This document shows positions 3,775 to 55,210 of a DNA stretch of 64,000 nucleotides, piece after piece. The notes beneath the pieces are model-generated. The model was not told the origin of the DNA and made no database searches. It worked only from the letters and a program-made list of their open reading frames with translations. Numbering within the stretch: position 1 is the first letter of the stretch; every line of letters starts with the position of its first letter. Both the position numbers and the translations under genes were made by a program. Source of the stretch: an uncultured Acidobacteriota bacterium (lineage in GTDB: Bacteria; Acidobacteriota; Terriglobia; Terriglobales; Acidobacteriaceae); NCBI GenBank assembly GCA_963754885.1, contig CAVWHT010000041.1:24441-88440 (forward strand), written 5' to 3'.

Positions 3775-4497
3775 TTAACTGGACTTCACTCCGGGGATTC
3801 GTTTTGCCGGCTGAGCCTGGCTGTCCTCCTTCACTTGCGTCAGATGGGCGCGCATCGCGTCGCGCGCTTTCTCTGCATCATGATGCTCCACGGCTTCCAG
3901 AATTTTCTTGTGATGAATCTGGCCGCGCTCGGGGCCGCCGGGAACGCGAAAGATGCGAAGGCGCTGCTCGCGCAGAAGCCCGACAATGGAATCGAGCAGT
4001 GAAAGAATAAGGGGATTGTCTGCACCTTCCGCGAGGGCCAGATGAAAATCGAGATCGGCCTCGATATAGGCCTGCGGATCCTGGCCGGCGCGATCCATGA
4101 CCGCGACCGCCTCGCGCATCGTGGTTAATTCTGCGTCCTGAATGCGGAGGGCGGCGAGAGCAGCGATCTCCGGCTCGAGGATCGCGCGAACTTCCGCCAA
4201 GTGCGTGGAGCCCTCCGGTTGACCTATCTTGACCATGAGGTCGAGGGATTGGCGGACGGCCTGCGTGGTTCCGTCCGTGATGAAGGTTCCGCGTCCGGAG
4301 TAAGCTTCGACCAGACCTTTTTCGCGAAGGGCCTTAACGGCTTCGCGCACCGCAGTGCGGCTGACTCCGAAGCGCTGGGCGAGTTCGCGTTCGGCGGGAA
4401 GTTGATCGCCCGGCTTCAGACTGCCTTTGACAATAGAATCCTCGATCTGCTGAACGATCTGTTCGTAAAGACGAGAGGTCCGAACGAGTTTGTACAC
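3775..4497 (-). CDS. GntR family transcriptional regulator (FadR/FCD subfamily)
   Basis: wHTH LPAERELAQRFGVSRTAVREAVKALREKGLV plus a C-terminal FCD-like helical domain. The track ORF extends to 4764, but the first ~89 codons are S/R/P-rich. GTG 4497 (G-rich RBS upstream) gives a family-typical 240 aa; ATG 4611 is the alternative start. Confidence 0.85.
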   Translation of the reverse strand: MYKLVRTSRLYEQIVQQIEDSIVKGSLKPGDQLPAERELAQRFGVSRTAVREAVKALREKGLVEAYSGRGTFITDGTTQAVRQSLDLMVKIGQPEGSTHLAEVRAILEPEIAALAALRIQDAELTTMREAVAVMDRAGQDPQAYIEADLDFHLALAEGADNPLILSLLDSIVGLLREQRLRIFRVPGGPERGQIHHKKILEAVEHHDAEKARDAMRAHLTQVKEDSQAQPAKRIPGVKSS

Positions 4498-4643: not shown

Positions 4644-4911
4644 AATCGCAATGTAACACAGATGAGCCTTGACCTGCAAATCGTACGGCCTGGGCGACAG
4701 AATTTGGGTAGGGATCCTTCGGCTGCGCAACGCTTCGCCTTCGGCGGAGCGTTACTCCGCTCAAGATGACAAAGCGCTAGTTTTGGGTTGGAGAGTAGAC
4801 TCCGACGCGGCGCCGGAATCAGAATAACACCACTTGCCGAAACTGAATTTGCTTGACACTGTTTCGGCGGAGGTGGTATGGCTGTCGGACCAGAAAGAAC
4901 GGAGGGGTTCT

Positions 4912-7900
4912 ATGCAAACCCGTACGCCGTCCCATGTCGGACGGAGGACTGTAGCTATCCGGTCGTTGCTTGCGCTTGTTACTTTACTGTGGTTTTCCAC
5001 CGCCGCTGTGGGCCAGTCGACGAATGGGCGCATTCTCGGCACGCTTACGGATCAGAGCGGGGCCGCAGTATCGGGAGCCTCCGTGGTTGTTACGGACGTG
5101 CAGCGAGGCACCTCGCGCACGGTGACGACCGACGAATCCGGCAACTACGCCGTGCCGAATCTGCAGCCCGGCAATTACAAGATCCATGCCGAAGCGAAGG
5201 GTTTCAAGAGCGTGGAGCGAGTCAACGTTCTGCTCGAAGTCGCCAGTGACGTGCGCGCGGACTTCTCGTTGCAGCCGGGACAGGTTTCGGAGACGGTGAC
5301 CATCAGTGAAGACGTTCCCCTGGTCAACACGACATCGGCTAGCCTAGGGGGCACGCTGAGCAACAAGGAGATCAACGATCTACCGTTGAACGGCCGGAAC
5401 TACGAAAACCTGCTACAGCTGCGTCCGGGCGTGATGCGTTATCCGGGCGGCGGATTCTCGACCACCAGTTCCGACGGCCTGCGCGCCGAGGACAACGCGT
5501 ATTTCGTGGATGGTTTGTTCAATAGCGAGCCTTACTCCGGCCAGGCCATTATTAACGGAGCGGGGATCGCCGGAGACTCGGCCACAATTCTTCCCATCGA
5601 CGCGATTCAGGAATTCAACATCCAGCAGAATTCGCCGGCAGAATATGGGTGGAAGCCGGGTGCGGTGGTGAACGTCGGATTGAAATCGGGGACCAACGAT
5701 ATCCACGGGACGGCGTTTATCTTCGGGCGAGATGGCGCGATGGATGCGCGCAACTTTTTCAATGCCGACCCGAATCCGAAATTGACGCGCACCCTGGAGC
5801 AGTTTGGCGGGAGTTTTGGGGGGGCGTTTATCAAGGACAAGGCGTTCTTCTTTGGCGCTTATGAAGGCCAGCGCTACAACGTGGGGAATTCGTTCGGGGG
5901 AGTGACGAGCCCTTCGATGGTGCACATGACGCCGAACGGAACGTGCTCATTTGGTTTCGCGGGTGACTGCGCGGACAGCATCCCGGATGCGGTCGCCGAT
6001 CTGCTGGAGCCGGCAGCGGCATCTGCTGGGGCCATCGTGAGTCCCGCCAGCCTGCTGGTTGCCGGATGCGCGCTTTCGGGCGGTTCGGTTACGTGCAATG
6101 GCACAGGATTTCCTACGAACAACGCGCAGAGCATCAACATCACGAACGGGTTTAACAACAACGTTCATGTCGACAACTTCGTCGGCAAAGTGGATTACCG
6201 GCTCAACGAGCGGCACAGCATCAGCGGGATGTATTTTTTCGGCAACAACTCGGGAACGGTAGAGGATTTTCCTGAGCTACAGCAGAAATGGCTCTCCGAC
6301 ATTCACACTCGCGCGCAGGTGGTGGGCGGGAACTGGATTTGGACTCCGGGCGCGAAATGGGTGAATGAAGCGCGCGTGGGTTACAACCGTCTGTACCAGC
6401 CCACGTTGCCGGGCGATCTGAACACGCCGGCGTCAGCTTACGGCTTGGACACTGGCGTGAGCGGGCCCTACACGGGCGGGCTGCCGCGCATCGGTTTCGG
6501 CGGATATTTCTTCCCTGGGCTGGGCGGTTTCAAATGGCCGAAATTCCAGGGGCCGGATTCGATCACGCAATTCGTGGATCACGTGTCCTACACGTCGGGC
6601 AAGCACGCGATCACGGTGGGTGGCGAACTGCACTACAACAAGGTGACGAACGCGGCGTACGGCAATGCCCGTGGCAGCATCAGCTTCCTGGGTGGCGTTG
6701 TGAGCGGGACCCCGGCTCCCAACGGGTCGAGCCCGCTGGAAGACTTCTTTGGCGGAGCGCCGCTGAAGTCGACGGTGGAGGTAGGAAACCCGACGCTGCA
6801 CCTGCACAACTGGGCCTACGGGTTGTTTTTCCAGGATGATTACCGGGCCACCAAGACTTTCACCCTGAACTTTGGTGTGCGCTACGAAAACAGCTCGGTC
6901 CCGCAGGAAGCCAACAATCTGCTCGGCAACTTTGATCCGAATGTCGGCCTGGTGCAGGTGGGACATCAGATCAGCAGCCTGTACAAACCGGATCACGCCA
7001 ACTTCGGTCCACGTGCCGGGTTTGCGTGGGACGTGTGGGGCAATGGCCGCACGGTTCTGCGCGCCGGCGGCGGCTTGACCTACGAAACGGTGAACTGGCA
7101 GTCGTTCGTCGCCTTCAACAACGCTTTTGGTCCGGGCAGCGTGCCCACGGGAGCGCCCATCGACGCCGGCGGCGATACGTCCGGTGGAACGATCACTACC
7201 GGAAACGTCACGGTCAAGAACATTGCAAACTATCCTGCGACTTGGGACGCCGCGAACGGCCCGCTTTACGGCGGAAGCACGGTGAACTGTTTCAAGAGTC
7301 CCTGCCCTGTCATGACGGTCGATCGCGGTCTTACGACTCCGTACGTATGGAACTGGACGTTGAACCTGCAGCACGCCTTTACGCCGAATCTGTCGATCGA
7401 GGCCGCGTATGTGGGGAATCGTGGTTCGAATCTGACGGGCATTCGCGATATTAACCAGCCTCCAGTGGGAGCCGGTTGGGGGACTGGCCCCGGAGGCGAA
7501 CTGACGCTGTGCCTGGCCAGTGCTCCGGCCTACAGCAACTGCTTCGTGGATGCCAACAATGGCGAACAGACGCTTGCGCCGTATTACGGAAAGTTTCCGT
7601 ATCTCGCCAACATCTTTCAGATGGGTAACGTCTACAAGTCCAATTACAACGGCCTGCAAGTTACGTTGAACGCGCGCAATTACCACGGCCTGAGCATGGT
7701 GGCGGGTTACACCTACTCGCACGCTCTCGACGATGTGGGCGCGAACTGGGACTTCGGTTATGGCTCCGGCCTGCCGCAGAACGCTCACAACGTGACGGCG
7801 GAGTACGCGAACAGCGATTTCGATATCCGTCACCGGCTGACGCTCTCGCTCACCTACGCCATTCCCGGCCGCAAGGGGTACGGGCAGATGCTCGATGGCT

Positions 7901-9897: not shown

Positions 9898-9988
9898 CAA
9901 CGCCTGTGCAGGGACGGACGCAGCCTGCCCTGAGCGGAGCCGGAGTGCTGGATGTTCTTCCTGTTGTCCAACCTCCGAGTCGTTATTT

Positions 9989-14955: not shown

Positions 14956-15453
14956 ATGACCGTATTAACCCGTTGGGAGCCGTTCCGTGAGTTTGCCACG
15001 CTGCAGGACCGCATCAACCGCGTATTCCGCGATTCCTACACCGCAGACCGGGATGAGTCCCTCACCACCTCGAGCTTTGCCCCCGCCGTTGACGTCTACG
15101 AAGACGAGCACAAAGTCACGTTGAAGATCGAAGTGCCCGGAATCGACGAGAAAGATATCGACGTCCGCGTGGAGAACAACACTCTCACCGTGCACGGCGA
15201 GCGCAAGATCGAAAAGGAAGAGAAAGAAGAGAACTATCGCCGTGTGGAGCGCCAGTACGGCAGCTTCACCCGCACCTTCACCCTGCCCACGACCGTGGAG
15301 ACCGAGAATGTTTCGGCGAACTACGACAAGGGCGTCCTGAAGATCAGCTTGCCCAAAAAGGCCGAAGCCAAGCCGAAGCAGATCAAAGTGCATGTCGGCA
15401 GCGAAAAGGGCGAAAAGACCCTCGAAGCCAAGGGCCCCAGCAAAGCCGCGTAA
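14956..15453 (+). CDS. Hsp20/alpha-crystallin family small heat-shock protein
   Basis: RBS aaggagg 14941..14947. Contains the alpha-crystallin domain ...PAVDVYEDEHKVTLKIEVPGIDEKDIDVRVENNTLTVHGERK...GVLKISLPK. Confidence 0.95.
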   Translation: MTVLTRWEPFREFATLQDRINRVFRDSYTADRDESLTTSSFAPAVDVYEDEHKVTLKIEVPGIDEKDIDVRVENNTLTVHGERKIEKEEKEENYRRVERQYGSFTRTFTLPTTVETENVSANYDKGVLKISLPKKAEAKPKQIKVHVGSEKGEKTLEAKGPSKAA

Positions 15454-15456
15454 AAG

Positions 15457-15482
15457 CAGTGGTCAGTGGCCAGTTGCCAGTG
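15457..15482 (+). repeat. One-armed tandem CAGTGG-word repeat
   Basis: cagtggtcagtggccagttgccagtg immediately after the hsp20 stop. Same word as the hairpins at 44417, 44931 and 49835. Confidence 0.7.
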
Positions 15483-15490
15483 AAACCCAT

Positions 15491-15534
15491 GTGGGGACAG
15501 CCGCCCCCGGCTGTCCGGTCGAGCCAAGCTCGAC
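15491..15534 (+). repeat. REP-like element, family TGTGGGGAC-palindrome-GTCCGG-CGAGC..GCTCG
   Basis: ggacagccg-cccc-cggctgtcc (15495..15516) plus gtcgagc-caa-gctcgac (15518..15534). Copies at 35566..35599, 37239..37283, 38989..39010, 40884..40922 and 54304..54348. Confidence 0.8.
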
Positions 15535-15634
15535 TCGATTTCCAGTCGATAGCGGCAATGATTGGGAAGGGCACGACTTAAAGTCGTGCCGCCAAAGGGC
15601 CCGTTATGACAGGGCTTTAGCCCTTGAGCTCCAA

Positions 15635-35565: not shown

Positions 35566-35599
35566 ATTTTGTGGGGACAGCCGCCATCGGCTGTCCGGC
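35566..35599 (+). repeat. REP-like element (TGTGGGGACAGCCG family)
   Basis: ttttgtggggacagccg-ccat-cggctgtccggcc; 9-bp stem 35574..35595. Confidence 0.8.
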
Positions 35600-35683
35600 C
35601 GCCATGCGGCGTATGGCTGTGCCCCGCACACAAGCCTCGCATTTGAACTTGCCGCCTTCCCACTCGTATACTGACAGCCCGCC

Positions 35684-36989: not shown

Positions 36990-37775
36990 TTAAATCTCAC
37001 TTCTCTTAGCCGCCTCAACCAGCGCCTCGAAGATTGCGCGCGACGCTGCGTCTTCTTCCACCGACCGCTCGGGATGCCATTGCACCGCCAGCACAAAATG
37101 ATCTGGCGCGGTTCCTTCCAGGGCTTCAATGATGCCGTCATCGGGACAGCGGGCGACGATGCGCAGACCTTCGCCGATCGCGTCTGCCGATTGATGATGA
37201 GAAGAATTCACGGGGAGGATTAGGCTGCCAGCATCGCCGAACTGCGCTCGGCCCGACAGCCGGGGGCGGCTGTCGCCACACACAATCTGCGCCAGCACCG
37301 AGCCTCGATCGATTTCGACTTTGTGCGCGACTGCGACTTTCTTTCCTGCCTCGTGATTCACTTTCGCGCGTGTCACTTCCGGCAGGAAATCCGGGATGTG
37401 CTGCACCAGCGATCCACTGCGATGCACGTTCAGACTCTGCAGGCCGTAGCAGATGCCGAGCACGGGCTTGCGCTGGGCATAAGCGTCGTCGAGAAGAAGA
37501 TCGTCGACTTCATCGCGGCGCGGGTCGGCTTTGGCGGTGTGCGGTGACGGCGCTTGCTTAAATCTCGCGGGATCGACGTTGGCATTGCTGCCGGGCAGCA
37601 GCACTCCCTGACAGCTTGCCATCAAGCTTCGAACTACGGCCGGCGTTTGATCAAGCGGAATGCGAACCGGCTCTCCGCCTGCCAGCGCGACCGCGCGCTC
37701 ATATTGCGGAATCGCTCGCTCGCCGTACTCGCGGTCGGTGGAATGCGGCATCGGGATGGCGATCCGTGGCGGCAT
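36990..37775 (-). CDS. Class I glutamine amidotransferase, peptidase C26 (gamma-glutamyl-GABA hydrolase-like)
   Basis: Start taken at MPPRIAIPMPHS (ATG 37775, 8 nt after the upstream stop). GICYGLQSLNV (nucleophile Cys), ...VNSSHHQ..., ...VQWHPE. Confidence 0.85.
   Translation of the reverse strand: MPPRIAIPMPHSTDREYGERAIPQYERAVALAGGEPVRIPLDQTPAVVRSLMASCQGVLLPGSNANVDPARFKQAPSPHTAKADPRRDEVDDLLLDDAYAQRKPVLGICYGLQSLNVHRSGSLVQHIPDFLPEVTRAKVNHEAGKKVAVAHKVEIDRGSVLAQIVCGDSRPRLSGRAQFGDAGSLILPVNSSHHQSADAIGEGLRIVARCPDDGIIEALEGTAPDHFVLAVQWHPERSVEEDAASRAIFEALVEAAKRSEI
37239..37283. repeat. Intragenic REP-like element (CGACAGCCG-GGGG-CGGCTGTCG)
   Basis: 9-bp stem 37254..37275 plus the conserved flank actgcgctcggcc. 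Translated in frame as CGDSRPRLSGRAQ within the GATase. Confidence 0.8.
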
Positions 37776-37783
37776 CGGCAGAG

Positions 37784-38077
37784 TCAGTTCATCTTCTCGA
37801 TCGCCGACAGCGTTTTCATCTGCCGGTAATGGCGCCGTTCCAGAGAGATCGAGAAGACGAGAATGATGCCGCCCGCGAACAGAGCCATAGGCATCGCGAT
37901 GTAGCGGTAGGCGATGCGCATGTCGGGGTGAACGCCGCGCAGCTTGGACGCGATCACCGTTCCCACGATGGCCAGCAGCAAAGTGACGGCGAAACACAGC
38001 AGCGTTCCGATAAAAGTCATCAGGGCCACGCGCAGCGGAATACCGTACCAGCGTGGAGTTCGGGATGCTCTAGGCAT
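37784..38077 (-). CDS. Hypothetical small membrane protein (2 TM)
   Basis: 97 aa, packed between the neighbouring - strand genes (21-nt and 8-nt gaps). Confidence 0.5.
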   Translation of the reverse strand: MPRASRTPRWYGIPLRVALMTFIGTLLCFAVTLLLAIVGTVIASKLRGVHPDMRIAYRYIAMPMALFAGGIILVFSISLERRHYRQMKTLSAIEKMN

Positions 38078-38857: not shown

Positions 38858-38988
38858 AGCCTGCGCTTCGGGAGTAGGAGGCCTCAGCGGCTTGAGGCCG
38901 CACTTCTTTGCGCTTCATATGGCCCAACTGTACGTCGGGCCCGTCCCGGTATTCTTCCCCGGGATGCGTTGTTCCCACGGCGCTCGCC

Positions 38989-39010
38989 GGACAGCCGATG
39001 GCGGCTGTCC
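38989..39010. repeat. REP-like hairpin (GGACAGCCG-ATGG-CGGCTGTCC)
   Basis: Perfect 9-bp stem, intergenic. Confidence 0.8.
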
Positions 39011-39056
39011 CTACATGCGCGCCCTCGCTGTCACTTCGTGAGCATAGGCGCGGACA

Positions 39057-39869: not shown

Positions 39870-40222
39870 ACCCGTCCCCTTATCCCCCTGGCGGCCCGCA
39901 CAGTATCCGCAGGGTTGAGATTTGGCCGTACAAAAGTCCCGCTTACCGTTTCACATCCCAACTTGCGGGAAGCATGCTGCACAGGGGCCCGGATCAATCT
40001 CCGGGGCAGCATTCAAGTTTGCGGTCGTTCTATGCTTTCAACGTGGAAGGCGGTGCCATATGCACGGTCTTGTGATTGAAATCACACCAAGGATGCGCCG
40101 CCGAGGGTAAGCAGGAAAGATTACCGAGGTCACAAAAGTGAGCGGCGGGCGCGGCGGTCAGTAGCCACGCGTTTGAGCGAAGCATCGTAAATTCCGGAAC
40201 GAGACTTTACAATCATTCCTCC

Positions 40223-41404
40223 ATGACGGTGACGGTGCGATCATTCGCCAAGATTAACCTTGGGCTGCGGATTGGAGCGGCGCGGGAAGACGGGTTTCAC
40301 GACCTGCTGACCGTGTACCAGATGATCGGGCTGCACGATGTGATTCGGGTGAGCGTGGCTCGTGGGACGGGGATTGAGATTCGATGCGAGGATCCTCAGG
40401 TTCCGCGGGATGAGTCGAATACTTGTTTCCGCATCGTCGAGCGGGCGATGGCGGCATTAAGGGCGAAGGGGCGAGTAGTCATCGAGATAGAGAAGCGGTT
40501 GCCGGTGCAAGGTGGGTTAGGCGGGGCATCGGCGAATGCGGTCGCAACTTTGCTGGGGTTAGAGCGGGTGGTTCGAAAAACTCTGCCCGCGGTGGAGAGG
40601 TTGAGGATTGCGGCGGAGGTGGGATCGGATCTGCCGCTGTTTCTGGTCGGCGGAATGGTGCTGGGGGTAGGACGAGGGGAGCAAGTGTATCCCTTGCCGG
40701 ATTTGCCTGCGATGGCTTGCGTGGTGGTGATGCCGGAGGTGGGGGTCTCGACCCCGAAGGCGTTTGCGGAATGGGATCGGTTGTGTGGCTCGTCTGGCGC
40801 GGGCACGCCCTTCGACAAGCTCAGGGCAGGCTCTGCCCGCGAGCCTGCGCCTCTGCTGTCGAGTTCTGAAGAGCAACAGCCAGCCGAGCTGCGCTCGGCC
40901 GGACAGCCGAAGGCGGCTGTCCCCACAAAACCTGGGACGGACGAATGCGTCCGTCCCCACGTGAGTAGTCCCCGCATGAGCAGTGCCAATCCAAGCAGTC
41001 ATCATCCCACGGCGAAATTGACGGTGGCCTCTGCGTCCGATAGAATGAATGAGCTTGGCCGCGAGTTGTCGGCGTGGCTGAGCGAGCCTTACTCCAGTGC
41101 TCCTTTTCGAAGGGGCCGGGCCGAGAATCCGCTTCTCTGGCTTGTCCGGGCTGGGATTAAAAACGACTTCGAAGAAGTCGTCTTTCCTGAGTATCCCGAA
41201 CTGCGTGAGGGGAAGCGTGTGCTTGAGCGCGCAGGCGCGAAATATGCGTCGTTGTCGGGGTCCGGATCGACGCTGTACGGGCTGTTTGGATCGAACGATG
41301 CGGCGGCGAGGGCAGTGAGCAGGCTTCGGAAGCAAGGTTGGGCGGCGCAGGCGACTTCGACGCTGACGCGGAGGGGATACTGGCGAAGAGTGCTGCTGGA
41401 TTAG
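40223..41404 (+). CDS. ispE: 4-diphosphocytidyl-2-C-methyl-D-erythritol kinase with ~100-codon in-frame repeat-derived insert
   Basis: MTVTVRSFAKINLGLRIG...KRLPVQGGLGGASANAVATLL...SLSGSGSTLYGLF GHMP-kinase motifs. 393 aa versus roughly 280-300 aa typical for IspE. Confidence 0.9.
   Translation: MTVTVRSFAKINLGLRIGAAREDGFHDLLTVYQMIGLHDVIRVSVARGTGIEIRCEDPQVPRDESNTCFRIVERAMAALRAKGRVVIEIEKRLPVQGGLGGASANAVATLLGLERVVRKTLPAVERLRIAAEVGSDLPLFLVGGMVLGVGRGEQVYPLPDLPAMACVVVMPEVGVSTPKAFAEWDRLCGSSGAGTPFDKLRAGSAREPAPLLSSSEEQQPAELRSAGQPKAAVPTKPGTDECVRPHVSSPRMSSANPSSHHPTAKLTVASASDRMNELGRELSAWLSEPYSSAPFRRGRAENPLLWLVRAGIKNDFEEVVFPEYPELREGKRVLERAGAKYASLSGSGSTLYGLFGSNDAAARAVSRLRKQGWAAQATSTLTRRGYWRRVLLD
40808..40957. 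repeat. Cluster of four perfect REP-type hairpins inside ispE
   Basis: gggcag-gct-ctgccc (40824..40838); ccgagc-tgc-gctcgg (40884..40898); ggacagccg-aagg-cggctgtcc (40901..40922); gggacggacg-aatg-cgtccgtccc (40934..40957). Confidence 0.85.
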
Positions 41405-41516
41405 GGGGCGAGAGGCTTGCCCCTGGGGCGCTCGGCTTCGCCTTCGCTTGGACCCTTCGACTGCGCTCAGGGCAGGCTAACGAGGCGGCCGTCGCCACAG
41501 GGCCAGGCTGGGTCAG
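41404..41516. repeat. REP-like GC-rich repeat block (includes the CGCTCAGGGCAGGCT motif)
   Basis: gacccttcgactgcgctcagggcaggctaac resembles 40808..40838 and, inverted, 9922..9936. Confidence 0.65.
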
Positions 41517-41517
41517 C

Positions 41518-41613
41518 GAATTTTGATTGTTGAATTTTGATTGTTGAATGACAATAATTGTGGACCCCAAGCGGGGTTCATTCAACCATCAACATTCGAC
41601 CATCAACGATTGG
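41518..41613 (+). repeat. Stuttered-word hairpin (TTGATTGTTGAAT words)
   Basis: Left arm gaattttgattgttgaattttgattgttgaatga. Inner stem acccc-aagc-ggggt. Right arm tcattcaaccatcaacattcgaccatcaacgattgg, ending 5 nt before tRNA-Gln. Confidence 0.75.
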
Positions 41614-41618
41614 CTTAC

Positions 41619-41692
41619 TGGGCCGTCGACTAATGGTAGGTCAAGTGCCTTTGGAGCACTTTGTCTAGGTTCGAATCCTAGCGGCCCAGCCA
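41619..41692 (+). tRNA. tRNA-Gln(UUG)
   Basis: UGGGCCG-UC-GAC..GUC-A-AGUGC-CUUUGGA-GCACU-UUGU-CUAGG-UUCGAAU-CCUAG-CGGCCCA-G-CCA; canonical 74-nt cloverleaf with encoded CCA. Confidence 0.9.
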
Positions 41693-41713
41693 GAAGAACC
41701 GCGATGAGTTTTC

Positions 41714-41777
41714 GAGCGGGTGAGCAATGAGCAACCTCGATTCTGACTTTGCTCACCACCTCATTGCTCACGGCTCA
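41714..41777 (+). repeat. Stuttered-word hairpin (GTGAGC/ATGAGC words)
   Basis: gtgagcaatga (left) pairs perfectly with tcattgctcac (right); additional tgagcaa/ttgctca register. Confidence 0.7.
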
Positions 41778-41800
41778 ACGCATAAGAGCGAAGCGAAACT

Positions 41801-42859
41801 ATGGCCACCTTAGTCACGCCGACCGACAAGACGACCGACAAGGTTGAGAAGAAGAGTCCGCCTGTGCCCGACGAGAAGCAGGAGCGGAAGCAGCGTCCGC
41901 GAGTGGACGAGAAGTTCAAGATCTTCAGCGGTACGGCGAATGAGCCGTTGGCCGACGAAGTTTGCCATTTTCTCGGGATGCCGCGCGGGCAGGCGCAGGT
42001 GACGCGCTTTGCCGATGGCGAGTGCTACGTGCAGATCCAGGAGAATGTGCGGGGCTCCGATGTGTTCGTGCTGCAGCCGACCTGCCATCCGGTGGATGGG
42101 CACTTGATGGAGTTGCTGCTGATGATCGATGCGCTGAAGCGCGCGTCGGCGCGGCGCATCACGGCGGTGATTCCGTACTTCGGATATGCGCGGCAGGACC
42201 GGAAAGATAAGCCGCGGAGTCCGATCTCGTCGAAGCTGGTGGCGGATTTGCTGACGACCGCAGGGGCGCACCGGGCGCTGATTGTAGATTTGCATACGCC
42301 GCAGTTGCAAGGATTTTTCAACATCCCGGTCGATCATCTGTTTGCGTCGCCGGTGCTGGTGGATCACTTCCGCAAGCTGGCGTTGCCGAACTTGACCATT
42401 GTTTCGCCGGATGCGGGCGGCGTGGAGCGGGCGCGGTTTTTCGCGAAGAAAGTGGACGCGGCGCTGGCGATCGTCGACAAGCGGCGCGTGGAGATGAACG
42501 TCGCGGAAGTGATGCACGTGATCGGCGACGTCAAAGAGCGGACCTGCCTGATCATCGACGATTTGATCGATACGGCCGGGACGCTGGTGAAGACGGCGGC
42601 TGCGTTGAAAGACAATGGCGCAACCGAGGTTTACGCCTGCGCTTCGCATGCAGTGCTGTCGGGGCCGGCGGTGGAGAACATCCGGAATTCTGTGATCAAG
42701 GAAGTCGTAGTCACGAACACGATTCCGCTGAGTCCGGAGGCCGACGCAGCTCGAACCGAAAAGGGAGGAAAGATTTCCGTCCTCTCGATTGCAGGATTGA
42801 TTGGCCGGGCGATTCAGGCGAATCACGAAGAAACCTCGGTCAGTAAGTTGTTTATCTAG
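41801..42859 (+). CDS. prs: Ribose-phosphate pyrophosphokinase
   Basis: ...FKIFSGTANEPLADEVC...VIPYFGYARQDRK...IIDDLIDTAGTL..., with a ~35-aa K/E/P-rich N-terminal extension. Confidence 0.95.
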   Translation: MATLVTPTDKTTDKVEKKSPPVPDEKQERKQRPRVDEKFKIFSGTANEPLADEVCHFLGMPRGQAQVTRFADGECYVQIQENVRGSDVFVLQPTCHPVDGHLMELLLMIDALKRASARRITAVIPYFGYARQDRKDKPRSPISSKLVADLLTTAGAHRALIVDLHTPQLQGFFNIPVDHLFASPVLVDHFRKLALPNLTIVSPDAGGVERARFFAKKVDAALAIVDKRRVEMNVAEVMHVIGDVKERTCLIIDDLIDTAGTLVKTAAALKDNGATEVYACASHAVLSGPAVENIRNSVIKEVVVTNTIPLSPEADAARTEKGGKISVLSIAGLIGRAIQANHEETSVSKLFI

Positions 42860-43825: not shown

Positions 43826-44428
43826 GTGAAACTGATTGTGGGTCTCGGCAATCCCGGAATCGAATATCAGTTCACGCCGCATAACCTGGGATTCCTGGCG
43901 ATCGATCGCATCGCGGGGAACCTGGGAGTGGAAGTGAGAAACCGGCAGTGCCGGGCGCTGACGGCGCGCACCGTGATCGCCGATCAGATGGTGCTGCTGG
44001 CCAAGCCTGAGACGTTCATGAATTTGAGTGGCGTTTCGGTGCGGGAGCTGGTGAGAGAGTACGAAGCAAATCCGGAATCGGATCTGATTGTGATTCAGGA
44101 CGAACTGGATTTTCCGCTGGGCACGCTGCGCATTCATACGCGGCGCAGCTCGGCGGGGCATAACGGCATCGAGTCGATCATCGATGCGCTGGGCACGCAG
44201 GATTTCCTGCGGATCCGGATTGGCGTGGCGCCGGAGCGGCCAGTACAGGTCATCAGCGCCGCGGTTGCCGCCGGGAAAGATTACCTCCTGGCTCCGATGC
44301 GCAAGGCGGATCTGAAAGTCGTGGATGGGATGCTCGACACCGCCGAAGAAGCGGTGAAGGTCATTCTGAAAGAGGGTCCGGCGGCGGCGATGAATCGCTT
44401 TAACCGGAAAGAAGAAAGTGGCCAGTGA
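43826..44428 (+). CDS. pth: Peptidyl-tRNA hydrolase
   Basis: GTG start; (M)KLIVGLGNPGIEYQFTPHNLGF...AGHNGIESI. Confidence 0.95.
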   Translation: MKLIVGLGNPGIEYQFTPHNLGFLAIDRIAGNLGVEVRNRQCRALTARTVIADQMVLLAKPETFMNLSGVSVRELVREYEANPESDLIVIQDELDFPLGTLRIHTRRSSAGHNGIESIIDALGTQDFLRIRIGVAPERPVQVISAAVAAGKDYLLAPMRKADLKVVDGMLDTAEEAVKVILKEGPAAAMNRFNRKEESGQ

Positions 44429-48630: not shown

Positions 48631-49830
48631 TTGAAACGCGCGCTACAGATCGTTGGTCTGGCTGGAGTACTGGCCCTCCTGGCGCCGCTGGCCGTGGCGC
48701 AGGACATTCATGTGTCCCGCGAAGGCGGAACCTGGGGACAGGAGATTACAGGCTCACTGGCTGCGGTAAAGAACTTAAGAGTGAAAGTCGATATGGGCTC
48801 GGTCGTGGTGCGAGGCGGGCAAGAGCAGGGCATCCATTATGTGGTTCATACGCATTTCGATAATTCGTCGGAGGAAGAAGCCCGCCGCCAGTTCGACAAG
48901 TTCAAAATCAGCGCCTATGTGAAAGGCGACACGGCGTGGATCGTGGGCGATTGGCAGGGAGGGCACCGTCCGCGACATTTTTCGGGCGAATTCTCCATCA
49001 ACGTTCCCCGCGAGATTGCGCTGGTGAAACTCGAGACCGAAGGCGGCAACGTTGACGCGTCAGGTCTGGCCGGGCGGGTGGAAGCCGAAAGCGGTGGCGG
49101 CAGCCTGAAACTTGACGACATCGGCGCTGGCGCATACGCCGAAACCGGGGGCGGCTCGATCGAAGTTGGAACCGTGGGCGGCGATCTGGGACTGCACACC
49201 GGCGGTGGTTCGATCGAAGTGCGCCACGCCAATGGTAAAGTCGTGGCGGAAACCGGCGGCGGCAGCGTGCGCATCTTTGCGGGCGCGCAGGGTGCAACCG
49301 TGGAAACTGGTGGCGGCAGCATTGAAGTGCATCGGTGCTCCGGTACGGTCAAGGCGTCCACCGGCGGCGGCAGCGTAGATCTAAGCGATCTCGACGGTCC
49401 CGTGGATATTTCGACCGGAGGCGGCAGCATCCGGCTGACTTCCGCCAAGGGTCATGTCCATGCGGAGACCGGCGGAGGAGGAATTGAACTTTACGGCGTC
49501 CCGTCGGCGCGGGCAGAAACCGGCGCGGGCGGGATCACGGTGAAGCTGGTGAACACGGGTAGCGAGCGGCATGATTCGGATCTTGAAACCGGCGCGGGCG
49601 ACATCACCGTTTACATCGCTGCAGATGTAGCCATCAACGTTCGCGCCAGCGTCGATATGGGGAACGGGCATCGCATCACATCGGACTTCCCCGACATACA
49701 CGTTCACAGCGAAGGCGATCAGTGGGGGCCGAAGACGCTGACTGCCGAAGGTGCGCTGAACGGCGGCGGACCTACGCTGAAAGTTCACACTTCGACCGGA
49801 GATATCTGTATCAGGCGGGCCAGCCGGTAA
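48631..49830 (+). CDS. DUF4097-type beta-strand repeat protein (putative adhesin)
   Basis: GAGGTGG then TTG 48631; signal (M)KRALQIVGLAGVLALLAPLAVAQ. About 10 periodic ETGGGSI(E/R)V units. Confidence 0.8.
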   Translation: MKRALQIVGLAGVLALLAPLAVAQDIHVSREGGTWGQEITGSLAAVKNLRVKVDMGSVVVRGGQEQGIHYVVHTHFDNSSEEEARRQFDKFKISAYVKGDTAWIVGDWQGGHRPRHFSGEFSINVPREIALVKLETEGGNVDASGLAGRVEAESGGGSLKLDDIGAGAYAETGGGSIEVGTVGGDLGLHTGGGSIEVRHANGKVVAETGGGSVRIFAGAQGATVETGGGSIEVHRCSGTVKASTGGGSVDLSDLDGPVDISTGGGSIRLTSAKGHVHAETGGGGIELYGVPSARAETGAGGITVKLVNTGSERHDSDLETGAGDITVYIAADVAINVRASVDMGNGHRITSDFPDIHVHSEGDQWGPKTLTAEGALNGGGPTLKVHTSTGDICIRRASR

Positions 49831-52990: not shown

Positions 52991-55210
52991 ATGCTTGAAC
53001 TCTCCACGCCGGTGCAGTATGTGAAAGGCGTTGGTCCGCGGATCGCGGAACTGCTGGCCGGCAAGGGCATCCACACGGTCGGCGACCTGCTCCATTATCT
53101 TCCCTTTCGCTACGAAGACCGGCTGAATCCTCGCGGCATTGCAGAGTTGCGCGCGGGCGAGATGGCCACGGTGGTTGCCGAGGTTCGCAACTCCGGATTG
53201 TTTCGCACCCGCCGCATGCCCATCTTTCAGCTCACGGTGGGACAAGGCCGCACCCGGCTGCGCTGCCTGTGGTTCAACGCGACTTATCTGCAAGACAAGT
53301 TTGTGCCGGGGCACATGATCGCGCTCTACGGCAAGGTCGAAGAGGATCCGCGCAGCCGCGAATTGCAGATCATGCAGCCGCAGTTCGAGATTCTGGGCGA
53401 GGCCGGCGACTCCGGGAATGGCGCCGATAAGAAAGCCACCGAGTCGCTGGAAATTGGGCGCATTGTTCCGATCTATGAGGCCATCGGACGCCTTACCCCG
53501 CGCTGGTTCCGGCGGATCATTCACACTGCTCTCGACAATCTGACGCCCGATTTGCCGGAAGCGATTCCAGCCGCGGTGCGATCGCACCTGGGATTGATTT
53601 CTCCGCGCGCCGCTTTGTGGAACGTTCACTGGCCCGAGCCCGGCGAAAGCCTGGAACAACTGCAGTCGTCGCGCACGCCGGCGCACATCCGTATGATCTT
53701 CGACGAACTTTTCTTTGTGGAGTTGGGCCTGGAGTTGAAACGGCGCCAGCAGAAGGCACAGACGGGAATCGCGTTTCGCCTGGACGATCGGGCGCGGGCG
53801 GCGATCAAGAAGATTTTGCCCTTTCATCCCACGGCCGCTCAGAAGCGGGTGCTCAAAGAAATCGCTGCCGACATGGAGAAGCCTTATCCCATGCGGCGTT
53901 TGCTGCAAGGCGATGTGGGTTCGGGAAAAACAATTGTGGCTTTTGAGGCGGCGATTATCGCGATCGAAAACGGCTGCCAGGTGGCATTGATGGCGCCGAC
54001 CGAAATCCTGGCGCAACAGCATTATTTTTCGGCGCGGCGCATTCTGGAGAATGCCGGATATCGCATCGTGCTGCTGACGGGCTCACTCGAAAGCGATCGC
54101 AAGCGGGAAATTCGCAGGCACATCGCGCAGGGGAATGCGCAACTGGTGATTGGTACCCATGCCCTGCTGGAAGAAAAAGTGGAGTTTGCCAAGCTTGGGC
54201 TGGTGATTGTGGACGAGCAACATCGCTTCGGCGTGATGCAGCGGCTGAAGCTGATGAAGAAGTCAGGCGAGAGCGGTGAAGACAGTGGTGTGGGACATAG
54301 TTATGTGGGGACGGGCGCTCCCGCCCGTCCAGCCGAGCGAAGCTCGGCAGTTGCCGGCGAACCCGACGTCCTGGTCATGACCGCGACCCCCATCCCACGC
54401 ACTCTCGCGCTCACCCTTTACGGCGATCTCGATTTGAGCGTGCTCGACGAATTGCCGCCGGGGCGCACGCCCATCGTTACCAAATGCGTCTCCGACGAGG
54501 AATCGCCGAAAGTGTGGGAGTTCGTTCGCAAGCAAGTGACGGCGGGACATCAGGCGTACGTGGTCTATCCCGTGATCGCCGAAAATGAGGAGAGCGAACT
54601 CAAGGCGGCGATCAAGATGTACCGCGAACTGAGCGGCAAGATTTTCTCCGACCTAAAGGTTGGCCTGCTGCACGGGCGCCTCGACGCCGAGCTGAAAGAT
54701 CAGGTCATGCGCATGTTCCAGCGTGGCGAATTGCAGATTCTGGTGGCGACCACGGTCATCGAAGTTGGCGTCGACGTGCCCAATGCGACGGTCATGGTGA
54801 TCGAGCATGCCGAGCGCTTTGGCCTGGCGCAGCTTCATCAACTGCGTGGGCGGATCGGGCGCGGCGCCGCGAAATCGTATTGCGTCCTGATGACGGGAGG
54901 AAAGGTCTCCGAAGACGGACAAAAGCGCCTGGACGCCATGGCGCGCACGAATGACGGGTTCAAAATCGCCGAACTCGATCTTGAGCTGCGCGGTCCGGGA
55001 GAATTCTTTGGCACGCGCCAGGCCGGGCTGCCCAGCTTTCGCGTGGCCAACATTATTCGCGACGCGCAGTTGCTGGAAGCCGCGAAGCGCGAAGCCGCCG
55101 CGGTACTGGTGGGACCCAATACGGAAATCTCCGCGGAAGAGATCAGCCGCGCGCTGGTGCACATGCGGACGCGCTGGCAGCATACGTACGGACTGGTCGA
55201 GGTAGGCTAA
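52991..55210 (+). CDS. recG: ATP-dependent DNA helicase RecG (with in-frame REP-derived insert)
   Basis: Wedge domain, LQGDVGSGKT (motif I), VIVDEQHRFGV (motif II), MTATPIPRTLAL, QLHQLRGRIGRG. Confidence 0.95.
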   Translation: MLELSTPVQYVKGVGPRIAELLAGKGIHTVGDLLHYLPFRYEDRLNPRGIAELRAGEMATVVAEVRNSGLFRTRRMPIFQLTVGQGRTRLRCLWFNATYLQDKFVPGHMIALYGKVEEDPRSRELQIMQPQFEILGEAGDSGNGADKKATESLEIGRIVPIYEAIGRLTPRWFRRIIHTALDNLTPDLPEAIPAAVRSHLGLISPRAALWNVHWPEPGESLEQLQSSRTPAHIRMIFDELFFVELGLELKRRQQKAQTGIAFRLDDRARAAIKKILPFHPTAAQKRVLKEIAADMEKPYPMRRLLQGDVGSGKTIVAFEAAIIAIENGCQVALMAPTEILAQQHYFSARRILENAGYRIVLLTGSLESDRKREIRRHIAQGNAQLVIGTHALLEEKVEFAKLGLVIVDEQHRFGVMQRLKLMKKSGESGEDSGVGHSYVGTGAPARPAERSSAVAGEPDVLVMTATPIPRTLALTLYGDLDLSVLDELPPGRTPIVTKCVSDEESPKVWEFVRKQVTAGHQAYVVYPVIAENEESELKAAIKMYRELSGKIFSDLKVGLLHGRLDAELKDQVMRMFQRGELQILVATTVIEVGVDVPNATVMVIEHAERFGLAQLHQLRGRIGRGAAKSYCVLMTGGKVSEDGQKRLDAMARTNDGFKIAELDLELRGPGEFFGTRQAGLPSFRVANIIRDAQLLEAAKREAAAVLVGPNTEISAEEISRALVHMRTRWQHTYGLVEVG
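54304..54348 (+). repeat. Intragenic REP-like element in recG
   Basis: tgtggggac scaffold; ggacgggcg-ctcc-cgcccgtcc (54309..54330) and gccgagc-gaa-gctcggc (54332..54348). Same scaffold as 15491..15534. Confidence 0.8.

Follow-up and report, generated by a model that had tools for sequence, protein, structure and literature searches.

The ispE locus and its product

The window analyzed here (the whole stretch of DNA, 64,000 nucleotides or 64 kb in length) comes from an uncultured bacterium of the Acidobacteriaceae (order Terriglobales; assembly GCA_963754885.1, contig CAVWHT010000041.1, positions 24,441 to 88,440). It contains ispE, the gene for the kinase of 4-diphosphocytidyl-2-C-methyl-D-erythritol (CDP-ME) in the essential methylerythritol phosphate (MEP) pathway, and, close to it, ispD and ispF. 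The subject of this report is a segment of extra DNA inside ispE. An original prediction held that the gene carries, in frame, about 100 codons of repetitive extragenic palindromes (REPs) that recur between genes elsewhere in the window. The coordinates of all features are collected in Table 1.

Several lines of evidence identify the open reading frame (ORF) as a bona fide IspE with predicted CDP-ME kinase activity. It scores 159.5 bits against the TIGR00154 ispE model (cutoff 138.7), with a match that falls into two parts, at residues 1-184 and about 311-370, and Pfam places GHMP_kinases_N (PF00288) at residues 71-144 and GHMP_kinases_C (PF08544) at residues 314-371. E. coli IspE uses Lys10, Asp141 and glycine-rich motif 2. 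K10 and D136 of the window protein, which we take to be the equivalents of the catalytic Lys10 and Asp141, are invariant in an 83-sequence alignment (A4), as are K91, P94, G98, G134 and the GHMP glycine-rich motif, found here as PVQGGLGGASANA. Between the window and its three closest relatives (84-89% protein identity), the first, second and third codon positions of the domains are approximately 0.93-0.94, 0.96 and 0.73-0.77 identical, a pattern that in both enzyme domains indicates purifying selection on the protein.

At 393 amino acids (aa) the protein is over-long for its family, as the original prediction had it: outgroup IspE representatives (~40% identity) are mostly 290-330 aa in length and lack the hypervariable segment described below. 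Solved IspE structures align to the two domain blocks only, and the gap between the blocks is about 30 residues in Thermus IspE (1UEK) and about 132 in the window IspE. An AlphaFold model (AF2) was computed from the 83-sequence alignment, which includes outgroups; it replaced a run on 29 close relatives that was unusable, with a predicted local distance difference test score (pLDDT) of 55. The model has a pLDDT of 81 (above 90 in the core) and a predicted template modelling score (pTM) of 0.77. Its best matches in the PDB are the IspE proteins of M. abscessus, M. tuberculosis, T. thermophilus, A. aeolicus and E. coli, with target-normalized template modelling scores of 0.82-0.86 against the solved structures. 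The variable segment lies between helix 177-189 and helix 272-287, the latter predicted with moderate pLDDT, and pLDDT falls below 50 at residues 205-271 and 288-300.

The fold match, the invariant K10, D136 and glycine-rich motif, and the low-pLDDT segment all support a tolerated loop in an intact enzyme. According to the model, the IspE fold is intact apart from the insert, which would form a disordered loop joining two helices, and the alignment and pLDDT suggest that this loop is surface-exposed and away from the active site. Mapping onto kinase structures agrees with the linker position originally predicted: the solved proteins align to the flanking blocks and the segment is a low-confidence loop.

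Make-up of the extra segment

Orthologues were obtained by scanning species-representative genomes, of which the best 80 loci were kept. These come from 80 Terriglobales / Candidatus (Ca.) Sulfotelmatobacter assemblies, range from 55% to 89% in identity, and are cited below by L numbers where needed.

The excess length of the window IspE is composite. It consists of REP modules within a hypervariable segment and a conserved extension that is not REP-like. The original prediction was correct about an in-frame REP insert but not about its size: the recognizable REP modules (40796-40850, 40883-40927 and 40931-40962) total about 55 codons, the hypervariable segment about 78, and the extension about 30 residues. 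The extension is kept across Terriglobales orthologues and is missing from outgroups of ~300 aa; a helix is predicted in it at 272-287.

Table 1. Positions of ispE, the parts of its extra segment, and related repeat copies in the window.
Feature	Position	Strand	Basis or remark
ispE (4-diphosphocytidyl-2-C-methyl-D-erythritol kinase), ORF of 393 aa	40223..41404	+	TIGR00154, Pfam, AF2 model
Hypervariable linker, residues 187-264 (~78 codons), helix STPKAFAEWDRL to KLT..SDRM	40781..41014	+	Length and sequence divergence, pLDDT
Outer hairpin GCGGGCA.../...TGCCCGC, read GAGTP..AREP, with nested unit in loop	40796..40850	+	8-bp perfect arms
24-nt PFD unit CCCTTCGACAAGCTCAGGGCAGGC, read PFDKLRAG	40808..40832	+	24-bp indel, core repeats
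REP module B: hairpin 1 GCCGAGC-TGC-GCTCGGC, hairpin 2 GGACAGCCG-AAGG-CGGCTGTCC, CCACA tail	40883..40927	+	
REP module C: hairpin GGGACGGACG-AATG-CGTCCGTCCC and CAC, read PGTDECVRPH	40931..40962	+	10-bp perfect stem
Lineage-conserved extension, residues 265-300 (~30 residues; KLT..SDRMNELGRELSAWLSEPYSSAP..RGRAE), not REP-like	41015..41122	+	Orthologue alignment
REP copy (PFD unit and partial hairpin 2) between ispE stop codon and tRNA-Gln	41451..41499	+	Syntenic in L001, L002
Intergenic REP copy, hairpin 2 type, between two minus-strand ORFs, downstream of CarboxypepD_reg protein gene	38986..39015	+	
Module B copy in peptidase C26 gene (ORF 36990..37997, -), read antisense CGDSRPRLSGRAQFG	37236..37280	+	
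Intergenic REP copy between PIN-TRAM gene and ispD	35570..35601	-	
Intergenic REP copy in mosaic hairpin cluster between hsp20 and clpB	15490..15521	-	
Intergenic PFD core with C-like arm, between convergent genes	9900..9950	-	
Module B copy in recG (ORF 52991..55210, +), read antisense VGTGAPARPAERSSA	54304..54348	-	Pfam-supported gene

All four hairpins of the original prediction are present, with coordinates correct to within 1 nt. They are perfect inverted repeats at 40824-29/40833-38 (6 bp), 40883-89/40893-99 (7 bp; 10 nt at 90%), 40901-09/40914-22 (9 bp) and 40934-43/40948-57 (10 bp). An outer pair at 40798-805/40834-841 (8 bp, perfect) encloses the 40824-38 hairpin. The minimum-energy RNA fold of 40790-40965 retains all of the hairpins and has a z score of -4.9 relative to 200 dinucleotide shuffles. 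Module C has the architecture of module B hairpin 2 and is nearly invariant in the window and L001-L003. Module B of the window ispE is read as AELRSAGQPKAAVPT, and the insert peptide includes the stretches AELRSAGQPK and AAVPTKPGTDECVRPH. No stop interrupts the insert, as had been noted from the sequence: the 393-aa ORF is continuous, and modules B and C are stop-free in six of six frames.

A Pfam scan detected the GHMP domains only and no domain in the inserted segment, and an Rfam scan of 40000-42000 returned no family except tRNA, and none for the hairpins. An intein or intron was considered and rejected: Pfam finds only GHMP domains, Rfam finds only the tRNA, the frame is kept in 78 of 80 orthologues, and the shortest segments have just 17 aa.

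A dispersed family of palindromes

The palindromes in ispE belong to a family that is dispersed through the window. The 16-mer GGCGGCTGTCCCCACA, allowing up to 3 mismatches, has 9 matches in the 64 kb, compared with 0.80 expected, and none of 100 shuffles reached 9. The module at 40883-40927 and the stretch 37236-37280 agree at 89% over 45 nt, and the copies at 38986, 15490 and 35570 are 91-93% identical to the module over 30-32 nt; a more diverged copy of module B lies at 54304. The string GCTCAGGGCAGGC occurs exactly at 9923 (-), 40819 and 41465 (+). The original prediction had assigned the ispE hairpins to the same REP families as intergenic sites at 15491, 35566, 38989, 41450 and 9922, and these sites are real and lie between Pfam-supported genes.

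Aligned copies describe a modular family. Module B consists of hairpin 1 (GCCGAGC-TKC-GCTCGGC), hairpin 2 (GGACAGCCG-NNNN-CGGCTGTCC) and a CCACA tail; module C is a single hairpin of the hairpin-2 type; and the PFD unit has the form CCCTTCGAC(N3-4)GCTCAGGGCAGGC, ~24 nt. REPs as a class are found mainly outside genes, as a rule shortly downstream of them. Seven hairpins of the REP family were counted in the window, three of them intergenic and four within a total of three genes. Hairpin 1 has 63 copies outside ispE in the 80 loci.

A broader estimate of the intragenic fraction was attempted and set aside. By a proxy that scored a REP as intragenic when an ORF spanned it with at least 80 codons on each side, 23 of 59 flank REPs were ORF-spanned, compared with 43% of random positions, and antisense shadow ORFs (for example, upstream of pth) confound the measure. 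The intragenic cases claimed from the window are restricted to Pfam-verified genes.

By these sequence comparisons ispE is not special, for the same family is carried in frame by recG and a peptidase C26 gene, and by an mnmE-like gene in relatives. The recG product has the Pfam domains RecG_wedge, DEAD, Helicase_C and RecG_dom3_C, and its REP site falls between helicase motif II (DEQHRFGV) and motif III (MTATPIPRT). In 120 orthologues this spacer is hypervariable, with a length of 27-55 aa, and contains REP peptides in both orientations, including the nested PFD-unit readings ALSLSKG and PERSRRG. In the peptidase C26 (glutamine amidotransferase-like) gene the REP is read just upstream of the VNSSHHQ motif. 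Syntenic orthologues of this gene have spacers of 24-79 aa, some with CGDSRPRLSGRAQ and REGHGFSRA modules, while those of L031, L061 and L066 have no REP modules. A 483-aa ORF at L044:2483-3931, which by eye resembles an mnmE/TrmE-like GTPase, has REP copies read in frame at two places, as HVGTAAPGCPAEQSSA and HVGTAAFGCPAEQSSA; the N-terminal domain holds one of them and the other lies close to the C-terminus. L080 (near 3566) is similar.

The insert across the Terriglobales

Comparison with relatives, by sequence, indicates that the insert is clade-wide and old and not specific to one strain. The best 120 protein matches are all Ca. Sulfotelmatobacter-like IspE of 329-436 aa, and across the set of 80 loci the protein ranges from 324 to 448 aa. 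The variable segment, between GVSTP..F..WD and SDRM, could be parsed in 62 orthologues, where it ranges from 17 to 97 aa. The REP module marked by hairpin 1 is present in 42 of the 62, about 20 are without module B, and in 15 the segment has no perfect hairpin of at least 7 bp. Such hairpins make up 17.7% of the bases in variable segments, compared with 1.3% elsewhere in the gene and 1.6% in flanking DNA. The modules form a mosaic and are read as AGTP[FDKLRAGS]AREA, QGLKP...DAALKGRSST, QGLKP..GTAEAVPF, REGHDFSRA and GTDECVRPH, and AELRSA is followed by GQPxAAVPT, WTGEGARPHT, RTAEGGRPH or WPGQRPGPT.

Genes without repeats also exist, for example L028, with a 17-aa segment, and P0021, a protein of 329 aa that lacks the hypervariable segment altogether. 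When the orthologues are ordered by neighbor joining of the core protein, module sets are common within clades and REP-less genes are scattered among REP-bearing ones; clade-shared module sets and scattered REP-less genes are the grounds for inheritance with turnover and loss.

The gene is a single intact ORF in 78 of the 80 assemblies. It is very unlikely that ispE is a pseudogene, an alternative that the original prediction had raised, or a split gene, with its function supplied by another copy or by two separate halves. This explanation could draw on L026 (3922-5250), where a break in a REP-rich insert with several ALKGRSST-type units leaves separate N- and C-terminal ORFs, and on the 64-kb limit of our view of this genome; L071 is also frameshifted, near 4207. 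The window ORF is uninterrupted, however, as are nearly all of its orthologues, and both domains are under strong purifying selection. Each of the 80 assemblies yielded a single locus, with no second ispE from any assembly among the 80 best loci, and the nearby ispD and ispF indicate a working MEP pathway.

REP hairpins are also found at syntenic intergenic sites (~2770 and ~7100-7470 in locus coordinates), where their stem subtypes differ by species. Examples are window 38989, L003:2777, L017:2770 and L005:2772. The pattern is suggestive of hot-spot reuse, or of replacement, outside genes as well.

A nested unit

The PFD unit lies in the loop of another hairpin. The window and L001 have CCCTTCGACAAGCTCAGGGCAGGC in the loop of the outer hairpin, and L002 and L003 have the outer hairpin without it, so that the unit is delimited as a clean 24-bp indel, at which no target-site duplication, a mark of MITEs along with terminal inverted repeats, could be read unambiguously. 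As a dispersed repeat the outer hairpin itself has a weak status, since it occurs only once in the window and the 80 loci add a single extragenic copy (L011:556-573). In L007, L016, L043 and L058 (near 4680-4720), the PFD unit is instead found in the loop of module B hairpin 2. As a rule, the 21 copies of the unit in the window and the loci sit between the two arms of a REP hairpin, and hairpins of two types hold it in this way. These sequence patterns suggest either loop-targeted nesting or a long-loop REP subfamily.

Hairpins are conserved, peptides are not

Hairpin 1 was detected from the DNA without reference to the reading frame. The variable segments of 42 loci contain 44 copies, and 43 of these share one codon offset and strand. 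All B-type hairpin-2 copies in ispE are likewise on the plus (coding) strand. The genetic code does not force this constancy, because modules B and C are stop-free in six frames and other frames are used elsewhere; in recG and peptidase C26 the family is read antisense, in two other frames. The constant frame and orientation point to one ancestral colonization, or to strictly site-directed replacement.

Among the window and its three closest relatives, 77 of 78 third codon positions in modules B and C are identical, compared with 724 of 945 in the domains (Fisher p = 8.6e-8), and where the linker is not REP-derived, divergence is the same at every codon position. Pairing is conserved over greater distances. 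In an alignment of 38 orthologous module-B copies, 96.7% of cells pair, compared with 33-43% when partners are slid. Five of nine stem pairs in hairpin 2 have double-sided (compensatory) changes, and none of 500 shuffles reached the observed covariation. The peptide read from module B is nonetheless wholly different among orthologues: GQPKAAVPT, WTGEGARPHT or WPGQRPGPT. To judge by these alignments, the conserved entity is the DNA or RNA hairpin and not the encoded peptide.

A further alternative is that the excess is simply a protein domain of this lineage, as the original prediction had considered, or a low-complexity linker, and that it resembles the repeats by coincidence. This is the least probable of the alternatives considered. 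The ~30 residues at 265-300, a conserved non-REP extension with a predicted helix, are what such an explanation would lead one to expect. The preceding part of the segment is not: its DNA is 89-93% identical to other copies in the window, it is hypervariable in both length and sequence, it contains no Pfam domain, and base pairing is preserved in it where the peptide is not. For residues 192-246 the dispersed DNA copies and the conservation of pairing refute coincidence. The orthologue alignment thus bears out the prediction, since it reveals a hypervariable segment that matches intergenic REP DNA and not a conserved domain.

Conservation of the hairpins could reflect selection on structure or repeated replacement by other genomic copies. 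A comparison of the ispE stem type with flanking REPs of the same genome gave no sign of concerted evolution within genomes (10 of 49 matches, compared with 10.5 expected by permutation), though the sample is small.

These observations also bear on whether the hairpins are adaptive, that is, kept for a function in ispE and not merely tolerated. Candidate functions are a translational pause between the GHMP domains, control of mRNA decay, or gyrase/IHF-like binding of the kind associated with E. coli REPs and bacterial interspersed mosaic elements (BIMEs). Nucleotide conservation of the REP modules beyond that of synonymous sites, compensatory stem changes across 38 species, persistence of the module in one frame and orientation across an order-level clade, and a strong RNA fold (z = -4.9) are all in its favor. 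We nevertheless consider this explanation unlikely, although it is the chief rival to the one favored below. Fifteen of 62 orthologues are without a perfect hairpin of at least 7 bp, about 20 lack module B, REP-less genes are scattered in the tree, and module content turns over between close clades. Furthermore, the elements are also conserved between genes and within genes of no relation to ispE, where they lie in the other orientation, a pattern that fits a trait of the element family and not one of ispE itself.

Origin and maintenance of the insert

The explanation that we favor, and consider probable, is that stop-free REP palindromes passively colonized a permissive IspE loop early in the clade and are read through as a disordered spacer. 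A permissive inter-helix loop would be occupied by a REP cluster of three parts: the outer hairpin, in which the 24-nt unit is nested, the module of two hairpins, and one more single hairpin. With core modules that are stop-free in six frames, any length that is a multiple of three would leave the ORF open. The encoded peptide would be an unconstrained disordered spacer, and the enzyme fold would remain untouched. Colonization would date to about the base of the clade that was sampled (Terriglobales / Ca. Sulfotelmatobacter), with vertical inheritance thereafter, which is indicated by an orientation and frame that are the same almost everywhere. Modules would subsequently have been gained, nested, swapped and lost, making the site an old hot spot. 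We presume from the sequence that the segment is in fact translated and that the insert is neutral for IspE activity; mobility of the modules, and the mode of mobilization, are assumed by analogy. The central claim of the original prediction, that an intact ispE of an essential pathway holds REP palindromes in frame in a tolerant linker, is in keeping with the DNA matches, the purifying selection, the 78 intact ORFs and the model.

Several facts weigh against passive colonization or limit its support. Two of the 80 orthologues (L026 and L071) are frameshifted, with one break inside the insert, and these may be assembly errors. Translation of the segment is predicted from the open reading frame, and surface exposure and distance from the active site are judged from the alignment and pLDDT. 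The 64 kb that were covered leave a second ispE elsewhere in this genome formally possible. No transposase, RAYT (REP-associated tyrosine transposase) or other, was identified, and the RAYT search of the window was not completed. Also, the near-invariance of the embedded hairpins exceeds what pure neutrality predicts, the only observation of which this is true, and "merely tolerated" may understate the case.

A broader proposal, which we regard as speculative and rather doubtful, is that housekeeping loops (IspE, RecG, peptidase C26 and MnmE) are long-lived "safe havens" for a REP family of the Terriglobales, in which the hairpins are actively maintained over order-level timescales. If so, maintenance would proceed by selection on DNA or RNA structure or by copy-to-copy conversion seeded by the invariant hairpin 1, and the 24-nt unit would insert specifically into hairpin loops. 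The elements would then be as intragenic as they are extragenic, and might take part in how their host genes are translated or their mRNA processed.

Relation to known repeat systems

Several bacteria, Opitutus, Thauera and Rickettsia among them, are known to carry intragenic REPs, and DNA repair genes are frequent hosts (Di Nocera, De Gregorio & Rocco 2013, BMC Genomics 14:522, PMC3733652). REPs tagged with GTAG or CGTC are mostly extragenic stem-loops, a subset of which lies wholly inside ORFs for known proteins, singly or in clusters that encode 20-82 aa, and neutral insertion in flexible linkers or loops has been proposed (PMC3733652). In the CGTC type the stem measures 8-9 bp and the loop 4-5 nt, CGTC or TGTC forms the end, a 3-nt tail near CCA follows, and there is no dedicated transposase (Table 1 of PMC3733652). 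Compared by description, and not by consensus sequence, the acidobacterial hairpin 2 resembles it, with a 9-bp stem, a 4-nt loop and an end ...C(G/T)GTCC followed by CCACA. It differs in having an extra C after the tag, and the A/T pairs described for stem positions 1-2 are not apparent in it.

The DNA repair gene recG among the acidobacterial hosts is a further likeness to the intragenic REPs of that survey. In contrast to those REPs, the acidobacterial unit joins two hairpins in one module, the first of them nearly invariant, its clusters are head-to-tail and not head-to-head dimers, and one gene site is occupied across an order-level clade. For Acidobacteria the survey lists only tyrosine transposases flanked by terminal inverted repeats, and no REP family, and its supplements do not include ispE or recG (PMC3733652).

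Rickettsia palindromic elements (RPEs) are palindromic selfish DNA found in frame in unrelated housekeeping genes, where they are translated and are judged compatible with the fold and function of the protein (Ogata 2000, Science 290:347; Ogata 2002, Genome Res 12:808; as summarized in PMC10969869 and PMC3733652); RPE-4 and RPE-6 are REPs of the CGTC type (PMC3733652, PMC10969869). The acidobacterial palindromes are likewise read in frame inside housekeeping genes. However, a classic RPE is ~100-150 bp in length, encodes a conserved peptide, and resides in a reduced intracellular alphaproteobacterium, whereas the acidobacterial units are 25-45 bp, have no conserved peptide, occur as several families mixed and nested, and inhabit free-living soil hosts with large genomes. 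The acidobacterial elements work like RPEs but, to judge by size and peptide conservation, are outside that family.

The E. coli and Pseudomonas REP, BIME and REPIN-RAYT systems (REPINs being formed from REP sequences) are dispersed imperfect palindromes of 20-40 bp, often in mosaic clusters (PMC2817692, PMC3116915, PMC3337134). Long persistence, vertical inheritance and conservation at the nucleotide level are shared with the acidobacterial family. Unlike those systems, which are GTAG-tagged, RAYT-associated and essentially extragenic, several acidobacterial copies are intragenic, and no GTAG adjoins the stems in the 38-copy module-B alignment. Membership in the GTAG-type REP/REPIN-RAYT class was thus rejected on the tag. 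In the generic sense of a short (20-45 nt), imperfect, dispersed palindrome in many copies, with seven family hairpins in 64 kb, the family is a REP. We found no prior description, in the literature, of REPs or intragenic repeats in Acidobacteria, or of such elements in ispE. The present case extends the known phenomenon of intragenic REPs to the Terriglobales and to ispE.

A free-living lineage that is abundant in soil and peat (Ca. Sulfotelmatobacter / Terriglobales) thereby joins the short list of bacteria with palindrome-decorated housekeeping proteins, with an essential MEP-pathway kinase among the hosts. A single gene site can be traced across dozens of species through module gain, nesting, exchange and loss, with hairpins held more tightly than synonymous sites. 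With this orthologue series one can ask if intragenic REPs are junk, replicators that maintain themselves, or RNA or DNA structures with a function. The repeats also account for recurrent "nonsense" peptides in metagenomic acidobacterial proteins, such as FDKLRAG, AELRSAGQP..AAVPT, TGEGARPHT, ALKGRSST and GHDFSRA. Annotators and structure predictors should be aware that such stretches are repeat DNA and not domains.

Other repeats in the window

The gap between hsp20 and clpB contains a mosaic, BIME-like cluster at 15440-15610, in which several hairpin families occur: the "GHDFSRA" type, GGCACGAC-TTTAA-GTCGTGCC, a hairpin of the GGGCTAAAGCCC type, and the REP GGACAGCCG. It adjoins a repeat of the GTGGTCAGTGGCCAGT type, further copies of which lie at 44416, 44923 and 49825 (families D3 and D8). 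A long AT-rich inverted repeat at 41522-41607 (TTTTGATTGTTGAA... / ...TTCAACCATCAAC...) lies directly upstream of tRNA-Gln (41619-41692), and in Rfam it has only weak, sub-threshold matches to miRNA-precursor models. A direct repeat at 49072-49484 (family D2), with four copies at a spacing of 108 nt and 69-100% identity, suggests a region that codes for a tandem-repeat protein.

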